DNA of 64,000 bases from Thermodesulfobacteriota bacterium (lineage in GTDB: Bacteria > Desulfobacterota > RBG-13-43-22): contig JBEKPQ010000002.1 of the NCBI GenBank assembly GCA_049520575.1, forward strand, positions 32,834-96,833, in the 5' to 3' direction. Positions within the stretch are counted from its first letter, which is position 1; every line of letters starts with the position of its first letter. Below the pieces are notes generated by a model, which saw only the letters and a list, made by a program, of their open reading frames with translations, was not told where the DNA came from and made no database searches. Shown here one piece after another: positions 4,345 through 64,000 of the stretch. A program made the position numbers and the translations under genes.

Positions 4345-4423
4345 GAAGATCTTTTCTGCTCTAAAACTTTTTTCTTGTTAAGCCTTCATGCCCGCCTGAG
4401 GTGGGCGCTACGAAATATGAAGA

Positions 4424-4555
4424 AGGTTTCAAGGGGCCAAGGATTCAAGTGAAAGGCGTTGGAGTAAAACCACGCGGTTCCCCGGAGGGGAACCTTTTCT
4501 ATAGCTCGACAAAGTCGAGCGTCTGAACTCTGGAATCCTCGAATCCTGGAATCCT
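4424..4555. repeat. GGATTC/GAATCC heptamer hairpin carrying one double-hairpin unit
   Basis: 4470-4528 is identical over 59 bp to 58568-58626; flanked by aggattcaagtgaa and gaatcctcgaatcctggaatcc. Confidence 0.85.
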
Positions 4556-4678
4556 TTTTTCAAATTAATAGTAACGAATCTCTAATAAAATATCAAGGAA
4601 GAAACCATCCGACAAAATTTCCTTGACTTATTTAAGGAAAAGGATACAAGGGTATAAAATTCGTCGGCAAAGCATGAC

Positions 4679-11670: not shown

Positions 11671-13398
11671 TCACGGCACCAATAAGGCAGTCAATCCGGC
11701 TAGAATAAATCCGGCATCCACCATAGTCTCGAAAAAGACATTCCCGGGCAAAGCCCGATTTCTTTCATAAATAATGAGAAAACCAAATTGGTATAAAAGG
11801 CTGATCAGCAGCCATAGGCTCCAAAGGGGCAGAAGGCCTCCAAGAACTCCCGCCGACAAACCCGCCATAGTCGCCAGACTGATAATTTTCAGAACACGGA
11901 TGGTTTTTTCTTCTCCGATAATAATCGGTAGGGTTTCTTTGCCAACGATCATATCGCCCTGGATATCCAAAATATCAAAAAGACCGGAGCTGATATAGAC
12001 AAAAGAACAAATGACGAAAAAAATCATAATCAGAGAAAGGTTCACCGGCTGCTGTTCGGCCATGGCCGGGATCAAGGTGGTTACAGCTCCCCACCCCAGG
12101 GCCACGGAAAGGGTTTTAGATGCCGGGAGGTCTTTTATTTTTTTCATTCTGGTAAAGCGCTGCCAAACAGCCGGCACGATTTGAAAACTGTAGAGGATTC
12201 CCAAGGCACTCAAGGCGATAAGGAAAAGAAACGGGGCCAAGCCTAAGTGCAGGGCCAAGGCCAGGGAAACCAGGACGGCAGCAATTCCTGAAAAGAAGAA
12301 GGCGGATCGATGCCGCTGATAAAATTCAGAACGATCCGGATCGTTATATTCCGCAGCCCCCCGGTCAAGGAGGTGATTCAGGATGTGCATGGCATAAATA
12401 TGCAGGAAGGTTATAGCAAAATAAATCCAGTTCAAAGGGGCTTGCCGCAACCGGGAGGCGGTCAAGCTCAGGCACCCGGCCCCCAGGGCAATCATCAGAT
12501 TACTTTTTAATAAGAAACGTACCCAACTAAAAAGAAAGGTGCTCCAGGTGTATTCTCCCTGACCCTGAATCATTTCCAGTTCCTGGACTACTTTTCGAAT
12601 CATCCAGTTGGGGGTTGAAGCCCCGGCGGTAACACCCACGGTTTTAAATCGACGGATTTCATTTTTATCCAATTGATCTTCCGTCTCTATATGAAAGCAG
12701 GGAGTGCCCACGGATTCGGCGATGGCTGCCAGTCGACGGGTATTTCCGCTGTTATAACCTCCCACAACTACCAGTCCATCCACCTGCCGGGCCAGGTCAC
12801 GCACTTCTTCCTGCCGTTCGTGGGTGGCATTGCAGATGGTATTAAAAACCAGACTGTTGGGAAATCGCTCTCTGATTTTTTCCACGGCCGCCTGAAAAAG
12901 GGATTCATCCTGAGTCGTTTGGGCCACCACAATCACCTGTTTCAAATCCGGAAGCTCTTTAACCTGATCCGGATGGGTCAGGATAATTCCCCTGTCTTGA
13001 GAATAGCCCAGCAGTCCTATGACTTCCGGATGATCCCGATCGCCGACAATGATCGGGGTATATCCTTCCTGGGCATATTTCTTGATAATGGCCTGGACCT
13101 TGATCACCCTTGGACAAGTGGCGTCCACAATGGTACACCCACTCTTTTTCAGCCGATCGTGATCCTGAGGAGATATGCCGTGGGCCCGGATAACGACCGT
13201 GCCGGTTTGCCCCTCTTGAACGGGGTCCAGGATACGGATGCCTTTTTCCCCCAGCATCGATAAGACCTGAGGATTATGAATCAAGGGTCCAAAGGTGTAA
13301 ACAGGATCGGGATAATGGTAATTGGCCTCCAGGGCCATTTCCATAGCCCGGCGGACGCCCATACAAAATCCAGCCTTTTTTGCCAGACGGACTTTCAT
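11671..13398 (-). CDS. ispH: IspH fused to a C-terminal UbiA-like prenyltransferase membrane domain
   Basis: AGFCMGVRRA, IHNPQV, DATCPRV, AQTT, TICNAT and GASTP motifs, then 8-9 TM segments with NHLLD..D and DILDIQGD; start taken at MKVRLA. Confidence 0.9.
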   Translation of the reverse strand: MKVRLAKKAGFCMGVRRAMEMALEANYHYPDPVYTFGPLIHNPQVLSMLGEKGIRILDPVQEGQTGTVVIRAHGISPQDHDRLKKSGCTIVDATCPRVIKVQAIIKKYAQEGYTPIIVGDRDHPEVIGLLGYSQDRGIILTHPDQVKELPDLKQVIVVAQTTQDESLFQAAVEKIRERFPNSLVFNTICNATHERQEEVRDLARQVDGLVVVGGYNSGNTRRLAAIAESVGTPCFHIETEDQLDKNEIRRFKTVGVTAGASTPNWMIRKVVQELEMIQGQGEYTWSTFLFSWVRFLLKSNLMIALGAGCLSLTASRLRQAPLNWIYFAITFLHIYAMHILNHLLDRGAAEYNDPDRSEFYQRHRSAFFFSGIAAVLVSLALALHLGLAPFLFLIALSALGILYSFQIVPAVWQRFTRMKKIKDLPASKTLSVALGWGAVTTLIPAMAEQQPVNLSLIMIFFVICSFVYISSGLFDILDIQGDMIVGKETLPIIIGEEKTIRVLKIISLATMAGLSAGVLGGLLPLWSLWLLISLLYQFGFLIIYERNRALPGNVFFETMVDAGFILAGLTALLVP

Positions 13399-13401
13399 AA
13401 G

Positions 13402-13530
13402 TTTACCTCGATGTTGCAAAAGCCGAGGATGCTACAGATCCGAGGCAGCAAGGGTGAAGCCGTACTAAGGTACTGCGAACCCTTGCCAACAAAAGAGATG
13501 CAGCATCATACGGCTTTTCCGAAGGGTAAA
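13402..13530. repeat. GTAC-hairpin MITE-like element, divergent copy
   Basis: Nested IRs TTTACC/GGTAAA, AAAAGCCG/CGGCTTTT, GATGCT/AGCATC, GCAAGGGT/ACCCTTGC around GTAC-taag-GTAC. Confidence 0.72.
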
Positions 13531-14646: not shown

Positions 14647-14668
14647 GAGTTTAACCCGACCAGACTGA

Positions 14669-14753
14669 TTCTGGATACTGGTTTCTGGATCCTGGATAAT
14701 TGGTGAAATTCACCCGAGAAGAAGGTTTTATCCAGTATCAAGCATCCAGCATC
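14669..14753. repeat. Inverted heptamer array (GATNCTG / CAGNATC)
   Basis: ctggatactggtttctggatcctggat ... atccagtatcaagcatccagcatc. Confidence 0.75.
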
Positions 14754-14884: not shown

Positions 14885-14982
14885 GGAAGTGGAAAGCTCA
14901 CTGGTGGGGCTCCCGGACTTCAAATCCGGTGTGCCGTCTGAAGAGGGCGGCAGGTGGGTTCGATTCCCATGCACTTCCGCCA
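14885..14982 (+). tRNA. selC: tRNA-Sec (anticodon TCA)
   Basis: GGAAGTG/CACTTCC acceptor stem with encoded GCCA end, CCGGA-CTTCAAA-TCCGG anticodon arm, long variable arm, GTGGG-TTCGATT-CCCAT T arm. Confidence 0.95.
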
Positions 14983-15117: not shown

Positions 15118-15146
15118 TTGACTAATCTGCCCGAATATCTTATAAA
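15118..15146 (+). promoter_or_regulatory. Near-exact duplicate of the selC promoter
   Basis: 15116-15149 matches 14846-14879 with one mismatch. Confidence 0.65.
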
Positions 15147-15425
15147 AAAATCATCTCCAAAAACGTTGGCGATAATAGAAAAAATCGAGAGTTCGAGGAT
15201 TAACCTAACCCTTTGAATCCCAGAATCCTTGGATCCTTGATTCCTTTCTCCCAACTCATTTGAAGAAGAACCTCATTATTAAGATTTGTCCACATTTTTT
15301 AGAAAAAGGCACAGTCGGGCGCAGTCGCTCAATTTAATTTTCATAGCTATTAGGGCTGTGGCTTCGTTTACCAATCTCATATCGTATCTCTTGCTTCTTC
15401 CACTAGGATTCCAACAGGAGGGAAA

Positions 15426-16660: not shown

Positions 16661-16763
16661 GATGCTGGATGCTGGATTCTTGATGCTGGATACTTGATAC
16701 TGGATAGTCGATGATCCTTTTTATCGGCTCGATGCTTAAGGTTTTTCTCCAGCATCCAATATC
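16661..16763. repeat. Inverted heptamer array (GATGCTG family) between convergent genes
   Basis: gatgctggatgctggattcttgatgctggatacttgatactggat ... tccagcatccaatatc. Confidence 0.78.
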
Positions 16764-34191: not shown

Positions 34192-34282
34192 TTGGAATAC
34201 TGGAATAATGGAATATTGGAATGACATCCTTGGGAAAAACCCTTCTTCCAATATTCCAATATTCCATCACTCCAACACTCCA
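34192..34282. repeat. Inverted heptamer array (GGAATAN / NTATTCC) inside the dcw operon
   Basis: ttggaatactggaataatggaatattggaatg ... ccaatattccaatattccatcactccaacactcca. Confidence 0.8.
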
Positions 34283-58501: not shown

Positions 58502-58532
58502 GAATTATCTAAAAAAACAATAAAAGAAATAT

Positions 58533-58645
58533 CCAAGGATTCAATGGGAAGGCCTGGAAGTTAAAACCCACGCGGTTCCCCGGAGGGGAACCTTTTCTAT
58601 AGCTCGACAAAGTCGAGCGTCTGAACCCTTGAATCCTTGAATCCT
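58533..58645. repeat. GGATTC/GAATCC heptamer hairpin carrying one double-hairpin unit
   Basis: 58568-58626 is identical to 4470-4528. Confidence 0.85.
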
Positions 58646-60557
58646 ATTTTTGTTTTAAGTCGTTGTTCCCCTGACCCACCGGCCCGCCATCTCCCGGCTT
58701 GACCGAATTGGTGAAGGGGATGGTCAGGTTATAAACGCCGGAAGCAAGGGCGGTGGTCAAAGGGTAAGGGCCTTTCTTAAACACCTGGAGCATCCCTTTA
58801 TTGGAAGGCAGGACGGAAGCCGTAAATCCCTCGATCCCGTTTTTCTTAGCTGCATTAATCAGCATCTGATACAGATATGAGGCGATCCCCTTTCCCTGAT
58901 ATTCTTCATCCACAATAAAGGCCACATCGGCAAACGAACTGCTCGGCTCACGGACATATCTGGCCTCGGCCACAAGCCGGCTGTCTCCTTTCGGACCCAC
59001 CAACCCCACGATAGACACGATATTTCGGTAGTCCACGTTGACATATGACTGCATTTTGGTGTGAGGCATGGTTCGGACAGGACTGAAATAACGGTAATAG
59101 ACGTCCTCTTCGGAAAAACGATAAAACAACCTTCGCATTTGATCTTCGTCCGAGGGTCTGATGGACCGAAAGCGAAACCTTAGATTATCCTTAAAGGTAT
59201 GGGAATGTTCCAAATCCCCCGGGTAGAAATGACCGGCCTCGGTGAGATAGATCTGGTCCGAATAGATCATGTTGACCTCTTTGGCCTGCCGGACCAGTTC
59301 GGCCCGATCGTCCGGATGGGCGATGTCGATCAGGGCCAGGGCCCTTTCGCGGATGCTTATGCCCTTAAGGTAGGCAATGCCGTATTCGGTGACGATCATA
59401 TCCAGGGCCTCGCGGATATTGACCTGATTCGGATACTCATCAATCGAGATCTTGATATTCGATTGATTCCGTAAATTACGGCTGGGCAGGGCACAGATGG
59501 CCCGGCCGTTCTTGGACAGCCCCACACCGGCCAGCAATTCCAGGGCTTCACCCATACCGTAAGCCACATTGCTCATCCCCACATGCATGGCAACTTCACC
59601 GGTCAAATCCACCTTGCGGATGGGGATAATCAGGGTAAAGAAATCATGTGAGCCGATGATCTTGGGATCTCCCACAACGTCTATCCCCTGAAACTCGATC
59701 ACCGGATTTCGATCCAACCATTGCATGAGTTCGGCCGTGCCCAGGGCATAGGAGACGACACTTTTCCCCCGGTAGTAGGTCTTGTTCCGGTTGGTGACCA
59801 CACCACATTTGATAAGGTCCATGAGGGGATCGGTGATAAAAGGGGAATGTACGTTCAAATTTTTTTTATGTCTCAGATGGGGACCAAGGGCCTCAAACAG
59901 GCTGCCGGTGAAAAAAGGGAGACAACATCCGTTATCCACCAGTATCGCAACATTAGCTGCCACTTTATCCATAACAGGGTCCGTAGGCCAGCGGTCAAAG
60001 GTGATGGGCGGCAACTCGGCTTGAACCAGACAGTCGAATTCTTCTACGTTGACCAAGGTATCCCCCAGGGTTCGAGGCACCTGGGGGTTGATCTCCCCAA
60101 CCACCAGATCGGCCCTTTTCATGGCCGCCCTGGCCGCATCCACGGATACACCCAGACTGGCCCAGCCCGATTCATCCGGAGGTGTTATTTGAACAAAAGC
60201 CACCTCAATCCTTAGGGAACCGGATTCGATCAGCCCGGGGATTCGCGAGAACCGGCAGGGGATCATGTCCACTCGGCCCGAACGGACGGCCTGATCAGCC
60301 ATCCAGCCTGAGTAAAAGGTTTTCAGCCGAAATTTGGTTTGTTGCCGATCCTCCAAAAGAATGGTATCTCCCAGGCTAATGAGCTGAAGGACCTCGAGAT
60401 CTCTCAGATTGGATAAGGTCGAAGAAAGGAGATGCTTGACCAGGGTCCGGGGTTCAGCCGGCCCGGTGCCCACGAAGATGCTCATGCCCGGTTCGATTTT
60501 TTCTAGAACCTTTTCGGGAGCGAGGACCTTTTGTTGCCAGGTGTCATTCATGAGCAA
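58644..60557 (-). CDS. Acetyl-CoA hydrolase/transferase fused to a C-terminal GNAT domain
   Basis: AEPRTLV, EINPQVPRT, VTEYGIAYL.G..IRERALALIDIAHPDDR and AFIVDEEYQGKGIA. Confidence 0.9.
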   Translation of the reverse strand: MLMNDTWQQKVLAPEKVLEKIEPGMSIFVGTGPAEPRTLVKHLLSSTLSNLRDLEVLQLISLGDTILLEDRQQTKFRLKTFYSGWMADQAVRSGRVDMIPCRFSRIPGLIESGSLRIEVAFVQITPPDESGWASLGVSVDAARAAMKRADLVVGEINPQVPRTLGDTLVNVEEFDCLVQAELPPITFDRWPTDPVMDKVAANVAILVDNGCCLPFFTGSLFEALGPHLRHKKNLNVHSPFITDPLMDLIKCGVVTNRNKTYYRGKSVVSYALGTAELMQWLDRNPVIEFQGIDVVGDPKIIGSHDFFTLIIPIRKVDLTGEVAMHVGMSNVAYGMGEALELLAGVGLSKNGRAICALPSRNLRNQSNIKISIDEYPNQVNIREALDMIVTEYGIAYLKGISIRERALALIDIAHPDDRAELVRQAKEVNMIYSDQIYLTEAGHFYPGDLEHSHTFKDNLRFRFRSIRPSDEDQMRRLFYRFSEEDVYYRYFSPVRTMPHTKMQSYVNVDYRNIVSIVGLVGPKGDSRLVAEARYVREPSSSFADVAFIVDEEYQGKGIASYLYQMLINAAKKNGIEGFTASVLPSNKGMLQVFKKGPYPLTTALASGVYNLTIPFTNSVKPGDGGPVGQGNNDLKQK

Positions 60558-60558
60558 A

Positions 60559-62229
60559 TTAATGCACCCTTCGCTTTTTGCGGCTTAGATAATCCACCAG
60601 CAGATATTTGCCTAACTGGTTCGGAGCAGTGAAGAAGGCCCGGCCTTTATTGATCTTGGTTAACTCATTCACGAAGCTCACCAGGATTGGTGAACGGTCG
60701 AGCATAAAGGTATTGATGGTTGCCCCGGAGCGGGTGAAGGCGCGAACCTCTTTGAGGGTTTCCCGCACCGCGGTGGGACTGATTCCGAAGGTGGGCCATT
60801 CGATGTGCAATTGTCCGTTCATGGTAAAGGCCGTAGGTTGCCCGTCGGTGATGAGGATGACCTGTTGCCGGGCGTCCGGGTGTTGTCCGAGCAATCGGTG
60901 GGCCAAACGCAGGCCGTCCTGGATATTGGTGAACACGTCGTCTCCGAAATTACCCATGGCCTCTAAAAGCTCCTTGCGGTTAAGCCGACGCGCTTGGGTG
61001 GCGAACCCGACCATATAGAACTTGTCGCGCGGATAGCGGGTGCGGATCAAGTGTTCGAGGGCCAGGGCCACCTTTTTCGCCGCGGTGAAGCGGTCATTCT
61101 GAAACATACTGAAACTCATGTCCAGCATCAGGACGGTAGCAGTGGCGGCCTGTAACTCGTTCTTCAGGACCTCGAAGTCTTCGGCTTTAAGTCGGAGTCT
61201 GGTCTTTCCCGAGCGCAAGGCCTCCGCCTTAAGGCCGCTGCTTACCTCCCTAAATACCGCATTGGACAAAGTTCGGGGCAAATGCAGTTGGAAAGGGTCG
61301 CCGAAAACAAAAGGCCGGCTCTCGTCAGGCAGGGCTTCACCAGGCCCGCGAAAGGCCGTGCTGTGTGCCCCGAAGGCACCGCGGCCGACCAGGGCGTAAA
61401 TATCACGGAGGGCTTTTTGGGCAATGAGCCTCATGGCCTTGGGTGTGAGCACCAGCCGGCCTTGCTCCGCAGCCACGAACCCGGACTCGCGCAGGAAGTC
61501 CATGAACTGAAGGAAGGTTTGAATCGAACGACGGGCTTCTTCGCCCAGATATTGGGCCAGGTCTTCGAGGTTCATGCCCTGCAAGTCCCCGCGTTCGAGG
61601 GCCTCGATCAGCTCGTTCAAACGGCGCAGTTGTTCGGCCATCTCAGCAGCCTGATCCATACTCATGGGCTGGTTCCCCTGGAAAAAATTCTGGGCAGCCA
61701 ACTGCTGCAACTGAGACAGGGTCTGGAGAAACTCCTGAAATTCTGCCGCAGCCTCCGGGCTCAGGAAGTTGTAATTTTGAAGCTGCTTCACCGCCTCACC
61801 GAGATTCTGCGGCAGCCCGTGTAATTGCCCCTCGCGCTGGAACAACTCCTCAAGCTTTTTTCGCGCCTGTTCCGAGCCGGTGGCTGAAAGTTCCTGACTG
61901 GCTTGCTCCTCTGCCTGCTGTATGGCCTCCAGCTCCTTTTTTACGATCTGGTCGAGTTGGCGCCGCAACTCTTCACTTAAGCCTTTGGTATTGAACTGCC
62001 GGAGCATTTGTTCGCGCTGTTGGCTCAGCCGGTTGGCCAGGCGGTCCAGACCTTCGAGGCGGAAGTTCTGGAAATCGAAAGAGAGTCCCTCCCGCAGCAT
62101 CCATTCCAAGGCATAAGCGGCGTCCCCGGTCTCGAGAAACTTTTCAAGGAAGTCATTGGTCATGGCCTTGAACTCAAGGTCGATGACCTGGTTGCCGTCC
62201 CACCGGCTGTAACGATAAATCCTGGGCAT
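60559..62229 (-). CDS. VWA domain protein (actinobacterial Rv0959-like)
   Basis: YSRWDG N-terminus, MLDMSFSM MIDAS, TNIQDGL and ILITDGQPTA. Confidence 0.85.
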   Translation of the reverse strand: MPRIYRYSRWDGNQVIDLEFKAMTNDFLEKFLETGDAAYALEWMLREGLSFDFQNFRLEGLDRLANRLSQQREQMLRQFNTKGLSEELRRQLDQIVKKELEAIQQAEEQASQELSATGSEQARKKLEELFQREGQLHGLPQNLGEAVKQLQNYNFLSPEAAAEFQEFLQTLSQLQQLAAQNFFQGNQPMSMDQAAEMAEQLRRLNELIEALERGDLQGMNLEDLAQYLGEEARRSIQTFLQFMDFLRESGFVAAEQGRLVLTPKAMRLIAQKALRDIYALVGRGAFGAHSTAFRGPGEALPDESRPFVFGDPFQLHLPRTLSNAVFREVSSGLKAEALRSGKTRLRLKAEDFEVLKNELQAATATVLMLDMSFSMFQNDRFTAAKKVALALEHLIRTRYPRDKFYMVGFATQARRLNRKELLEAMGNFGDDVFTNIQDGLRLAHRLLGQHPDARQQVILITDGQPTAFTMNGQLHIEWPTFGISPTAVRETLKEVRAFTRSGATINTFMLDRSPILVSFVNELTKINKGRAFFTAPNQLGKYLLVDYLSRKKRRVH

Positions 62230-62249: not shown

Positions 62250-62664
62250 AGGATTCAAGGATTCCAGGGGTCAAGGATTCAAGTGAAATGCTTGGAAATA
62301 AAAACCCGGGTTCCCCGATCCGGCTTCCAGCCGATCGTTCCGCTCGGCTTTGCCGAGCTCCCTAAGAGGTTTCCATTCGGAAACCGACCCGATCTTTTGG
62401 GGAGACTCCCGAAGGGAGTTGGACAGGAAGCCTCCCTTTTAGGTCGGCGCCGGCCTCCTTGGGAGGCCTCTTCAATCAGGTCGGCGAAGCCGACCGTACG
62501 GGAACCTTTTCTATAGCTCGACGCCAGCCTCCTTGGGAGGCCTCTTCTATAGGTCGGCAAAAGCCGACCGCAAAGTCGAGCGGCCCGGCTTCCGAATGGA
62601 AGCCTCCTTTTAGGTCGGCAAAGCCGACCGGCTGAACCCTCGAATCCTTGAATCCCTGAATCCT
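62250..62664. repeat. Nested array of about 7 double-hairpin units inside a GGATTC/GAATCC heptamer hairpin
   Basis: See findings; outer unit arms match the solo copies at 4470 and 58568. Confidence 0.85.
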
Positions 62665-62674
62665 GTGTTATTTA

Positions 62675-64000
62675 TTAATGAAATCCCTCTCCTCGTTCTC
62701 GCCGCAAGACCGGTTTGGGCTTGGGTGCAGCAGGCGGCGAGGTTTTATAAACCGTTTTGTCCTTACGCAGTTCTTTGTTCAGTTTCTGGTTTAGATGAAG
62801 CCCTTCCAGGATAAACTCCGCGGCCGAGGCCAGTTGTGCCGGCGAATCCGTTAAGCCCAGGTTTTTCAGCGTCTCAAACATTGCCGGTACCTGTTGGAAA
62901 AACTCCCGGTATTGTGAAGCGGGTGAGTCGGCTGAGACCTCAACCACAGCCCCGGCGTTAAAGACCCGGATCACCGGCTCCAAATCCTCGACCCTGAAAT
63001 GGCTGTCAAAAACACCCTTGATGGCACGGCGGAGCAAGCGATCAATCACCTCGATCTCGGTCTGATCTTCACCGGCATACTCGATCTCAATCTTGCCCCG
63101 AGAACTGGCAAAAACCGCCGGTAAATCGGAAATACGCGGCACCACTTCTGGCTCACCCAAGCGAATCGCCCGCTTCTGTGCGCTGGCCACCACGCTTTCA
63201 AAATTGGATATGCTCATGCGCACCGAGACACCGGAGGACTGGTTGATCTCCGGGCACTGCCGGGCCTCAAAGGTCAGCCCGATGATAATCTCCTTAATAT
63301 ACTCCGGCACAAAAATCTGTCTTTTGGGTGTGACACGAACCAGAGCCTCCTGTTCGACAATGGCCATCTCGGTCTCACGCTTGGTCGGATAGTGGGTGCG
63401 CACCTGGGAGGCGTATCGGTCCTTGAGCGGTGTAATGATGCGGCCGCGATGGGTGTAATCCTCCGGGTTGGCCGTGGCCACGATCAACATGTCAAGCGGA
63501 AGACGCACCTTGAAGCCCTTGACCTGCACGTCGCCTTCCTCGAGGATGTTGAATAAACTGACTTGCACCTTCTCGGAAAGGTCGGGTAGTTCATTAATGG
63601 CAAAGATGCCCCGGTTGGTGCGGGGCAACAGCCCAAAATGGATAACCCCTTCGTCCGAGAGATAACGTCCCTCGGCCACTTTGATCGGGTCCACATCACC
63701 GATCAGGTCCGACACCGAGACATCGGGAGTGGCCAGTTTCTCTCCAAAGCGGTCCTCCCGCGGGACCCAAATGATAGGTAACCGGTCCCCCAGTTCGACC
63801 GCCCGAATCCGGCAGTCGTGGCAGACAGGTGCAAAAGGGTTGTCTAGGATCTCGCAGCCGGCCACCGCCGGCATCCACTCGTCAAGGAGCAGGACAAGGG
63901 TGCGGATCAAGCGGCTCTTGGCCTGGCCGCGTTCGCCCAGGATCATGATGTCGTGTCCCGAGAGGATTGCATTCTCTATCTCCGGGATCACGGTCTCGTC
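62675..64000 (-). CDS. Mg-chelatase-like AAA ATPase (Rv0958-like), 5'-partial at window edge
   Basis: GERGQAKSRL, FGEKLATPD, DVDPIKVA, INELPDL, TANPEDYTHRGRIITPLKDR; frame open to position 64000. Confidence 0.85.
   Translation of the reverse strand, partial: DETVIPEIENAILSGHDIMILGERGQAKSRLIRTLVLLLDEWMPAVAGCEILDNPFAPVCHDCRIRAVELGDRLPIIWVPREDRFGEKLATPDVSVSDLIGDVDPIKVAEGRYLSDEGVIHFGLLPRTNRGIFAINELPDLSEKVQVSLFNILEEGDVQVKGFKVRLPLDMLIVATANPEDYTHRGRIITPLKDRYASQVRTHYPTKRETEMAIVEQEALVRVTPKRQIFVPEYIKEIIIGLTFEARQCPEINQSSGVSVRMSISNFESVVASAQKRAIRLGEPEVVPRISDLPAVFASSRGKIEIEYAGEDQTEIEVIDRLLRRAIKGVFDSHFRVEDLEPVIRVFNAGAVVEVSADSPASQYREFFQQVPAMFETLKNLGLTDSPAQLASAAEFILEGLHLNQKLNKELRKDKTVYKTSPPAAPKPKPVLRRERGEGFH

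Follow-up and report, generated by a model that had tools for sequence, protein, structure and literature searches.

Between the genes of a MoxR-like AAA ATPase and a VWA-domain protein, an uncultured sulfate-reducer-type bacterium of the Thermodesulfobacteriota has an intergenic gap of 445 nt that is filled with very small hairpin repeats. We studied this array at positions 62250-62664 of a 64,000-nt stretch of contig JBEKPQ010000002.1 (hereafter "the window," meaning the whole stretch that was analyzed), where sister units of a double-hairpin repeat are nested within hairpin loops. The array was probably built by the stepwise insertion of double-hairpin DNA elements, and not as one designed fold. 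To the extent that a comparison of sequences can tell, this history is well supported by the series of alleles in relatives, by the variety of host contexts, by the presence of both orientations, and by the placement of the units in loops.

The array and its units

The units are double hairpins of 45-53 nt, in which two different hairpins, H1 (GGYYYCC type) and H2 (GSTCGRC type), stand in tandem on either side of a conserved T/C-rich spacer of 8-10 nt. The block contains one unit, S, split open as the host (its order is leader, H1, 9-nt spacer, H2, and a GGC or GTC trailer), four intact sisters (W, Y', Y, and Z), and two split ones (Z', which is clear, and V, which is weak). An original prediction, made from the letters of this DNA, had proposed such a nested array. 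Direct reading and a script confirmed it; according to the script, the stems of S H1 (7 bp), S H2, Z' H1, W, V H1, Y', Y, and Z are perfect. The prediction had not mentioned the inverted arms of tandem 8-mers that bound the block (62250-62283 and 62633-62664). These arms, which are 81-91% complementary, belong to a longer hairpin that we call the shell. The features are given below with window positions and strand; bits are scores of a covariance model of the unit, ORF stands for open reading frame, and IVS for intervening sequence.

60559-62229, minus: VWA-domain protein gene, the downstream flank; its ribosome-binding site (RBS) adjoins the left arm of the element
62250-62283, plus: shell left arm, about four tandem 8-mers, AGGATTCA / AGGATTCC / AGGGGTCA / AGGATTCA
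62284-62308, plus: shell loop remnant GTGAAATGCTTGGAAATAAAAACCC(G), matching the 5' end (GTGAA-ATG-C) and the 3' end of the four-helix-bundle/IVS-protein ORF in full-length relatives
62309-62581, plus: host unit S, split open, the same as the solo S cores except for the loops and one base
62309-62315 and 62500-62506, plus: S H1, GGTTCCC / GGGAACC
62507-62515, plus: S spacer, TTTTCTATA
62516-62522 and 62575-62581, plus: S H2, GCTCGAC / GTCGAGC
62322-62448, plus: unit Z', in the S H1 loop; both halves match unit Z
62322-62328 and 62426-62432, plus: Z' H1, GGCTTCC / GGAAGCC, followed by the spacer TCCCTTTTA and the H2 left arm GGTCGGC (62442-62448)
62333-62419, minus: unit V, degenerate, lying inverted within the loop of Z' H1; the weakest unit
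62342-62385, minus: unit W, intact, lying inverted within the loop of V H2 (61.9 bits, E = 1e-14)
62452-62495, plus: unit Y', which has the leader GCC and immediately follows the left arm of Z' H2 (60 bits)
62526-62569, plus: unit Y, immediately following GCTCGAC, the left arm of S H2 (56.6 bits)
62587-62629 (stems), plus: unit Z, flanked by the end of S (GTCGAGC GGC) on one side and the first right-arm 8-mer on the other (62.2 bits)
62633-62664, plus: shell right arm, four tandem 8-mers, TGAACCCT / CGAATCCT / TGAATCCC / TGAATCCT
62675-63991, minus: MoxR-like AAA ATPase gene, the upstream flank

Several details of the prediction have changed. The S H1 stem has seven of the eight pairs proposed, since position 62499 is a C. 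The 23-nt center of S (GGGAACCTTTTCTATAGCTCGAC, 62500-62522) is identical in two solo copies, which are present where they were expected, except that the starts given for them (4470 and 58568) include the leader and the cores lie at 4476-4520 and 58574-58618. Z' does sit in the S H1 loop but lacks an H2 right arm of its own: either the GCCGACC at 62489-62495 is shared with Y', or one of two direct copies was deleted. V is a sister unit by its H1, a perfect 6 bp (ACTCCC/GGGAGT, 62405-62419), and less clearly so by its H2, which has only 5 bp (GATCG 62333-62337 / CGATC 62390-62394); it was missed by the unit covariance model (R1) because W splits it. Unit Y has an H1 of only 6 bp and keeps the host loop AAA on its 3' side. 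Y' and Y are in like arrangement and 79% identical, and Tandem Repeats Finder (TRF) detects a period of 37 nt at 62440-62558. An origin of the pair from a 74-nt segmental duplication was ruled out: the similarity does not extend past the units, and the host arms show the differences expected of S and Z'. Z occupies the same type of site as S does.

The covariance model recovered W, Y', Y, Z, and both solo copies with E values of 1e-12 to 1e-15 and nothing further in the 64 kb. A scan of the window for perfect hairpins placed intact units at three loci only (17 overlapping stem/loop registers, against a mean of 0.5 and a maximum of 3 in composition-matched shuffles). Across 29 distinct units, 98.8% of the stem cells are paired, a value that falls to 37-61% in slid-register controls, and the covariation of stems that had been predicted is borne out by compensatory double changes in 8 of the 14 pairs. 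Covariation with so few G.U cells (5 of 405, with another 5 non-standard) fits a palindrome at the DNA level. These imperfect pairs were too few for a strand-asymmetry test of G.U against A.C, which was discarded. The sole hint of strand-specific pairing (RNA or single-stranded DNA) comes from a nested unit of another locus (L016, 6464-6506, minus strand; loci outside the window have L numbers), whose H1, GGCCCCT / GGGGGTT, pairs only if three G.T(U) wobbles are allowed. Searches of Rfam at the gathering threshold and at a permissive E-value returned no family (best match 23 bits, against a cutoff of 196 bits).

The two solo copies of S are parts of un-nested elements:

4385-4570, plus: element 1, made up of the left module, the 8-mer arms, the loop, the S core (4476-4520), and the right arms; flanked by a miaB-like and a rhomboid gene that diverge
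58520-58660, plus: element 2, with S core 58574-58618; between convergent genes

The three copies of the window are thus found in a divergent, a convergent, and an intercistronic gap (the last in antisense), and the orientation of units relative to neighboring genes is unbiased (8 co-directional, 7 antisense, 3 convergent, and 3 divergent).

Filled and empty sites in relatives

We followed VWA orthologues at successive levels of identity to their contigs, all sequences being metagenome assemblies. The AAA-VWA spacers of this series are listed by the identity of the VWA protein to that of the window.

62% (L152, L153): no spacer, the genes overlap
78% (L149-151): 144 nt of unrelated sequence
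84% (L155, 634-650): 17 nt
P0004 cluster member (representative 85%; L166-170): 112 nt, a different arm family
90% (L156): 117 nt, shell only
96% (L148, L154; two samples): 159 nt, the shell again, its orientation unchanged, and one S
97% (L147, 1811-2000): 190 nt, arms of a third family
100% (window, L001, L002): 445 nt, shell with S and six further units

The idea that the units are inserted DNA gains from this comparison, since empty, partly filled, and differently oriented alleles exist at the same locus in relatives. Two assemblies of other samples (L001 and L002) have the spacer of 445 nt without a single difference, and the three contigs that bear it measure 64, 31.5, and 2.5 kb. Hence the block is not an assembly chimera, a danger that had been raised with the prediction. 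The element of L166 (2389-2500) is flanked by a direct repeat of TTTAAT, of which the empty allele L155 has one copy, a putative target-site-duplication-like signature for arm-type elements. At this one intergenic site, three unrelated arm families are found among close relatives (comparison of L147, L166, and L155).

The S core itself can be present or absent. In the 96% relative L148, element 2 has the same shell with a clean gap of exactly the 51-nt S core (ACGC GGTTCCCC GGA GGGGAACC TTTTCTATA GCTCGAC AAA GTCGAGC GTC). In the AAA-VWA spacer of L148 and L154, S has the opposite orientation and sits on the far side of the shell loop. There are at least four arrangements of S and shell, namely the forward one, one with an inverted shell in CAZSTT (L003, L005, L017), one that is one 8-mer deeper (L143), and that of L148; in every one of them, the 3' arm of the shell directly follows the GGC/GTC trailer of S. 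Because the loop keeps its orientation while S flips, recombination between arms cannot interconvert these arrangements, and arm-mediated inversion was ruled out as the source of the L148 allele. S must have entered shells independently at least twice. In a contig of 1273 nt (L161, JGI 3300038418), the left flank of element 2 is joined to the right flank of element 1 via an identical S core, which is either a repeat-induced misassembly or a real recombinant.

Further dispersed copies, as predicted, do exist, and the same unit subfamilies occur in varied host positions and genomes. A degenerate pattern of the unit center identified 22 real loci in at least 10 metagenome-assembled genomes (MAGs) of Thermodesulfobacteriota or "delta proteobacterium," the carriers of units including CAZVHO01, CAZSTT01, CAVYLJ01, and MGQB01 (L009 and L020 of the genome scan were chance matches inside coding regions). 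At 9 of the 22 loci, an additional unit lies inside the S H2 loop. These guests include units of the GGCTTCC type (L003, L005), the GGCTCCC type (L010, L019, L024, L026), and the GGCCTCC or Y type (L006, L022), the last being placed exactly as Y is in the window. A nest of four levels, with an inverted unit, was found in L016 (RBG_13_43_22), and in L018, L025, and L083, inverted units occupy a single position in the hairpin of the left module. A composite of S with a GGCTCCC unit recurs at three loci of one MAG, which indicates that whole elements also spread as units.

The predicted targeting of hairpin tips holds for the nested insertions, which are in loops, but not for hairpins in general. 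Over about 880 kb (235 kb of window and MAG loci and 645 kb of shell-bearing metagenome loci), R1 found units solely inside the shell/S repeat family, and the ordinary GC-rich hairpins of the window are untouched by them. Shells that contain no unit are widespread; if an enzyme moves the units, it would therefore be expected to be restricted to certain lineages. BLAST of the elements against annotated plasmid and phage records gave no match; a scan of IMG/VR found no S core and two matches to the shell pattern.

The shell and the IVS-protein cassette

The solo unit had been taken for a free-standing one. Instead, it is always the core of a shell akin to an IVS-protein cassette, a long hairpin of about 130-200 nt with arms of tandem 8-mers. 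All three copies of the window are bounded by inverted 8-mer arrays, of the AGGATTCA type on the left and the TGAATCCT type on the right. The un-nested loci align to a consensus of about 195 nt, which runs from a left hairpin module through a first set of 8-mer arms, the loop GTGAAAGGCnTGGAAnTTAAAACC, the S core, and a second set of arms to ATTTTCGTACTAAA.

Both ends of the shell are shared with a cassette encoding a 23S-rRNA-intervening-sequence (four-helix-bundle) protein. The pattern of the left arm-loop junction retrieved 120 loci from the metagenome scan, and at many of them the arms flank an ORF whose ATG lies within GTGAA-ATG-C. The product of this ORF is a 23S-rRNA-intervening-sequence/four-helix-bundle protein (PF05635, Pfam E = 3e-22; relatives in L029 and L050). 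Among 123 matches to the left-end pattern of the shell, 2 have an intact ORF of 123 aa, 37 a decayed one, and 18 a short one, and 25 are gene-less miniatures; in the remainder the right arm is not recognizable or is cut off by the contig end. The two intact PF05635 ORFs are in L029 (5917-6310) and L050 (minus strand, about 380-790). The shells of the window look like gene-less miniatures of the cassette, and the series suggests that a selfish IVS-protein cassette decays into hairpins outside rRNA that resemble miniature inverted-repeat transposable elements (MITEs).

The IVS of Coxiella consists of a terminal inverted-repeat stem with an S23p ORF in the loop and variable tandem heptamers just upstream of the start codon, and the origin and mobility of IVSs have been described as unclear (PMC4990558). 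The shell has the same defining structure of terminal inverted-repeat stem, PF05635 ORF, and tandem 7-8-mers upstream of the start. It resembles the 23S rRNA IVSs of Coxiella and Leptospira (PMC4990558) in its long stem, its tandem 7-8-mers, the PF05635 ORF in the loop, and the reductive decay of this ORF. Moreover, IVSs are extra helices on the tips of existing helices, the same topology as that of the nested units. Unlike IVSs, the shells are mostly gene-less, and all copies are intergenic among protein-coding genes, none being in helix 25 or 45 of 23S rRNA; invasion by double hairpins has not been described for IVSs. Other hairpins may in turn harbor shells or invade them (L007, L035, L042, L055, L129, L131, and L137). 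In L007 (5850-6080, minus strand), a shell without S is enclosed by the loop of a larger hairpin whose arms consist of heptamers (CGTTACT/GGTTACT ... AACGAGT/AACCAGT), and the left arm of the shell carries a separate small hairpin, TCCCGCC aaa GGCGGGA, that recurs in the same MAG (L013, L024) and in L016.

Other parts of the window contain related sequences. Beside the tRNA-Sec gene (14885-14978) lies a decayed four-helix-bundle/IVS-protein cassette (15140-15290), which keeps the left outer end ATCATCTCCAAAAACG, a coding remnant (..IERML..), the right 8-mer arms, and the right outer hairpin CTTTCTCCCAACTCATTTGAAGAAGAACC. A promoter-like sequence of 33 nt, CTTGACTAATCTGC(T/C)CGAATATCTTATAAAAAA, occurs upstream of tRNA-Sec (about 14848) and again at about 15117. 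Three further intergenic hairpins with inverted tandem 7-8-mer arms, at 14667-14753 (GATTCTG/GATACTG), 16661-16760 (GATGCTG), and 34193-34282 (TGGAATAA), look like other arm families of a shell superfamily; the loop of the first begins with TTGGTGAAAT, resembling the GTGAAATGC of the shell. Unrelated to the array, an ORF of 582 aa on the minus strand (11671-13419) fuses LytB/IspH and UbiA prenyltransferase domains.

Origin of the nesting

If the array arose by stepwise insertion of DNA units, it would have grown in three layers. The shell would have entered between the AAA and VWA genes; the 51-nt S would then have inserted at the junction of the shell loop and the 3' arm; and sisters of the GGCTTCC, GGCCTCC, GGTTTCC, and ACTCCC types would have entered the 3-4-nt loops of H1 and H2 in either orientation, and once the S/arm junction. 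Since each insertion adds two hairpin loops, that is, two targets, the nesting would be self-reinforcing. The units are non-autonomous, since no gene is carried by them or recurrently linked to them. They may be moved by a trans-acting activity that recognizes or needs the unpaired loop DNA of family hairpins or cruciforms. For the host, the array is probably neutral or has a mildly regulatory effect, through a long stem in the AAA-VWA transcript.

Several observations weigh against this history. The alleles do not form a strict line from ancestor to descendant, as S is inverted in the 96% allele and the 97% allele (L147) has another arm family. In our tabulation, about 10 nested events fall in loops and 1 falls at the S/arm junction, whereas the 9-10-nt spacer, which is just as easy to recognize, has none; this bias to loops may partly reflect survivorship, given that insertions that break a stem leave the host unrecognizable. 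A table of junctions, which had been suggested with the prediction as a check for a fixed target or cleavage motif, revealed no fixed target sequence: the 5' flanks vary (AACCC, TTCAC, AATCC, TCGAC, TCGGC, TTCCCC, TCATG, GATCGG). S often stands between direct repeats of 3-6 nt, such as AACCC (element 2), AATCC (L023), AAACC (L025), and GAATCC (L143), with none in the CAZSTT copies. These AAYCC-like repeats are ambiguous and may only mirror the tandem 8-mer target. The units have no terminal inverted repeats. All-against-all clustering found no recurrent neighboring ORF at 26 unit-bearing loci, only ordinary paralogous families, and no transposase and no Y1/RAYT gene turned up in a Pfam scan that covered 24 of the 53 ORFs of the window. 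The search for an enzyme gene was shallow, extending in all to about 300 kb of unit-bearing DNA. Finally, gene conversion between dispersed homologous shells could relocate S without transposition.

This last point leads to a serious rival, recombination or template-switching without a dedicated enzyme, which we judge to be somewhat unlikely. Template-switching, slippage, and ectopic gene conversion among similar palindromes would rearrange the repeats, and quasi-palindrome correction would keep the stems perfect, with which the near-lack of G.U is in agreement. Several observations favor this rival: the 8-mer copy number of the arms varies between alleles, a Z' arm was apparently lost between direct GCCGACC repeats, the region 62440-62558 has its TRF period of 37 nt, the S composites at three loci of one MAG indicate a spread mostly of whole elements, L161 connects two loci via S, and no enzyme was found. 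However, conversion requires homology on both sides, and the same unit types are found in non-homologous hosts: the S H1 loop, the S and Z' H2 loops, the left-module hairpin, and the loop/arm junction in both orientations of the shell. Nested units are also never copies of their own host, and slippage does not yield inverted insertions such as W, V, and the fourth level of L016.

One sub-case of the insertion history is that an HUH (Y1) enzyme of the IS200/IS605-TnpA or RAYT type moves the units as single-stranded DNA hairpins, in line with the prediction. Two short GC-rich hairpins at the ends of a tiny element without terminal inverted repeats, insertions in loops that are expected to be single-stranded, and a high copy number of units in extragenic space would suit such an enzyme, as would the nearly constant C 5' of H1 and G 3' of H2 and the GAT(A/C)C leader that recurs in one subfamily. 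IS200/IS605 elements, which the prediction likened to the units, are known always to lie 3' of one tetra- or pentanucleotide, whereas the left flanks here are not constant. Like the palindromic elements derived from IS200/IS605 (PATEs), the units end in a hairpin on either side, lack terminal inverted repeats, and plausibly need single-stranded DNA; unlike them, they have no constant left-flank target, may have short flanking duplications, which are not expected for Y1 transposition, are about ten-fold smaller, and are not linked to a TnpA. The predicted likeness to REPINs fails because these are two inverted copies of one REP (repetitive extragenic palindrome) that form one long hairpin, while H1 and H2 are unrelated hairpins in tandem. 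Together with the lack of a Y1 gene in the sequence examined, which is a weak test, these differences make an HUH enzyme unlikely.

It is still less probable, and in our view very unlikely, that the array is a functional structured RNA or cis-regulatory element, e.g., a site of RNase III processing or an insulator between AAA and VWA, with helices added as expansion segments. The shell is of the IVS type, whose stems RNase III cuts in rRNA (PMC4990558), the element ends often adjoin the RBS of a gene, the stems covary, and the unit stem of L016 pairs only with G.U. Against this, the elements have no preference for orientation, the window copy is antisense to the operon, and others lie in divergent and convergent gaps; close relatives have no element or unrelated arm families at the same site; G.U is rare; Rfam gave no match; and the nested fold (-69 kcal/mol) lies 44 kcal/mol above the minimum free energy (MFE; -114 kcal/mol). 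As a test of the nest, thermodynamic folding is uninformative, as inverted and direct units cross-pair into a non-nested fold of lower energy. The lack of gene-orientation bias, the scarcity of G.U, and the distance of the nested fold from the MFE favor DNA palindromes with an insertion history over a selected RNA fold. The collapse of dispersed repeats into a chimeric block during assembly is a negligible possibility, for even if repeats do break or mis-join short contigs (L159, L161, L162), the 445 nt are the same in three assemblies from different samples, the units differ mutually (shared stretches are at most 23-57 nt and imperfect), and comparable nests are found in unrelated MAGs.

How does stepwise insertion of double hairpins compare with what is known of other repeats? 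The prediction knew of no described self-nesting element, which, for double hairpins, agrees with the searchable literature. Nesting of very small hairpin repeats has a precedent in cyanobacteria, where, as Elhai et al. reportedly described in 2008 (Genome Res 18:1484; cited in PMC3116915 and PMC5861425), the small dispersed repeats SDR4-6 of Nostocaceae, single hairpins of 21-27 nt, are nested. These SDRs are said to be non-coding, to be found inside other repeats, and to be mobile by an unknown mechanism, mobility having been inferred from filled and empty sites, and their host genome is reportedly rich in tandem heptamer repeats. The units share with SDRs their very small size, non-coding nature, nesting, and filled and empty sites. 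They differ in being double hairpins of 45-53 nt with a conserved T/C-rich spacer, in occurring in Thermodesulfobacteriota, in nesting to four levels, and in having as host a miniature of an IVS-protein cassette. The BOX elements of Streptococcus pneumoniae are modular small repeats with a variable number of an internal module of about 45 nt and strong predicted secondary structure; their boxB modules are tandem and identical in type and are not known to be nested in hairpin loops. SDRs have been reported from Nostocaceae only (PMC5861425).

Like REP, BIME, and REPIN-RAYT systems (PMC3116915), the units are short GC-rich extragenic palindromes of high copy number, in mosaics with other motifs, and non-autonomous. 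However, BIMEs are tandem mosaics and not loop-in-loop nests, and no GTAG-like foot as in REPs is conserved across all units. The units also differ from a MITE mobilized by a DDE transposase in the lack of terminal inverted repeats; the shell does have long inverted arms, but its full-length relatives carry the 123-aa PF05635 ORF and no transposase. Insertion sequences of the IS1397 and IS621 type also home in on extragenic palindromes that are repeated, their targets being REPs (reviewed in PMC3184786). Those are full insertion sequences with transposases, whereas the invader here is a palindromic repeat of about 50 nt whose targets include its own kind. The searchable literature contains no description of this repeat family or of double-hairpin self-nesting, and Geobacter genome papers merely list unnamed "multicopy nucleotide sequences."

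If the insertion history is true, the relatives provide a natural series for a 51-nt two-hairpin element, from empty site to shell, shell with core, and deep nest, which constrains what any mobilizing activity must recognize. Small hairpin repeats would then be linked to the poorly understood cassettes of four-helix-bundle proteins (IVS-protein, Avd-like). Self-nesting would have let the spacer grow from 0 to 445 nt within about 15% of protein divergence, which would bear on operon architecture, on errors in metagenome assembly, and on the strain typing of uncultured Thermodesulfobacteriota. We put forward more tentatively, as a possibility that we consider rather doubtful, that the units and the tandem-repeat-armed shells form one class of hairpin-loop-invading DNA that enters at the tip or at the loop-stem junction, by neither an HUH nor a DDE mechanism and with no element-encoded enzyme. 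Should such a class exist, the 51-nt S core would be among the smallest mobile DNAs known, and the class would explain how IVS-type helices reached the tips of rRNA helices.

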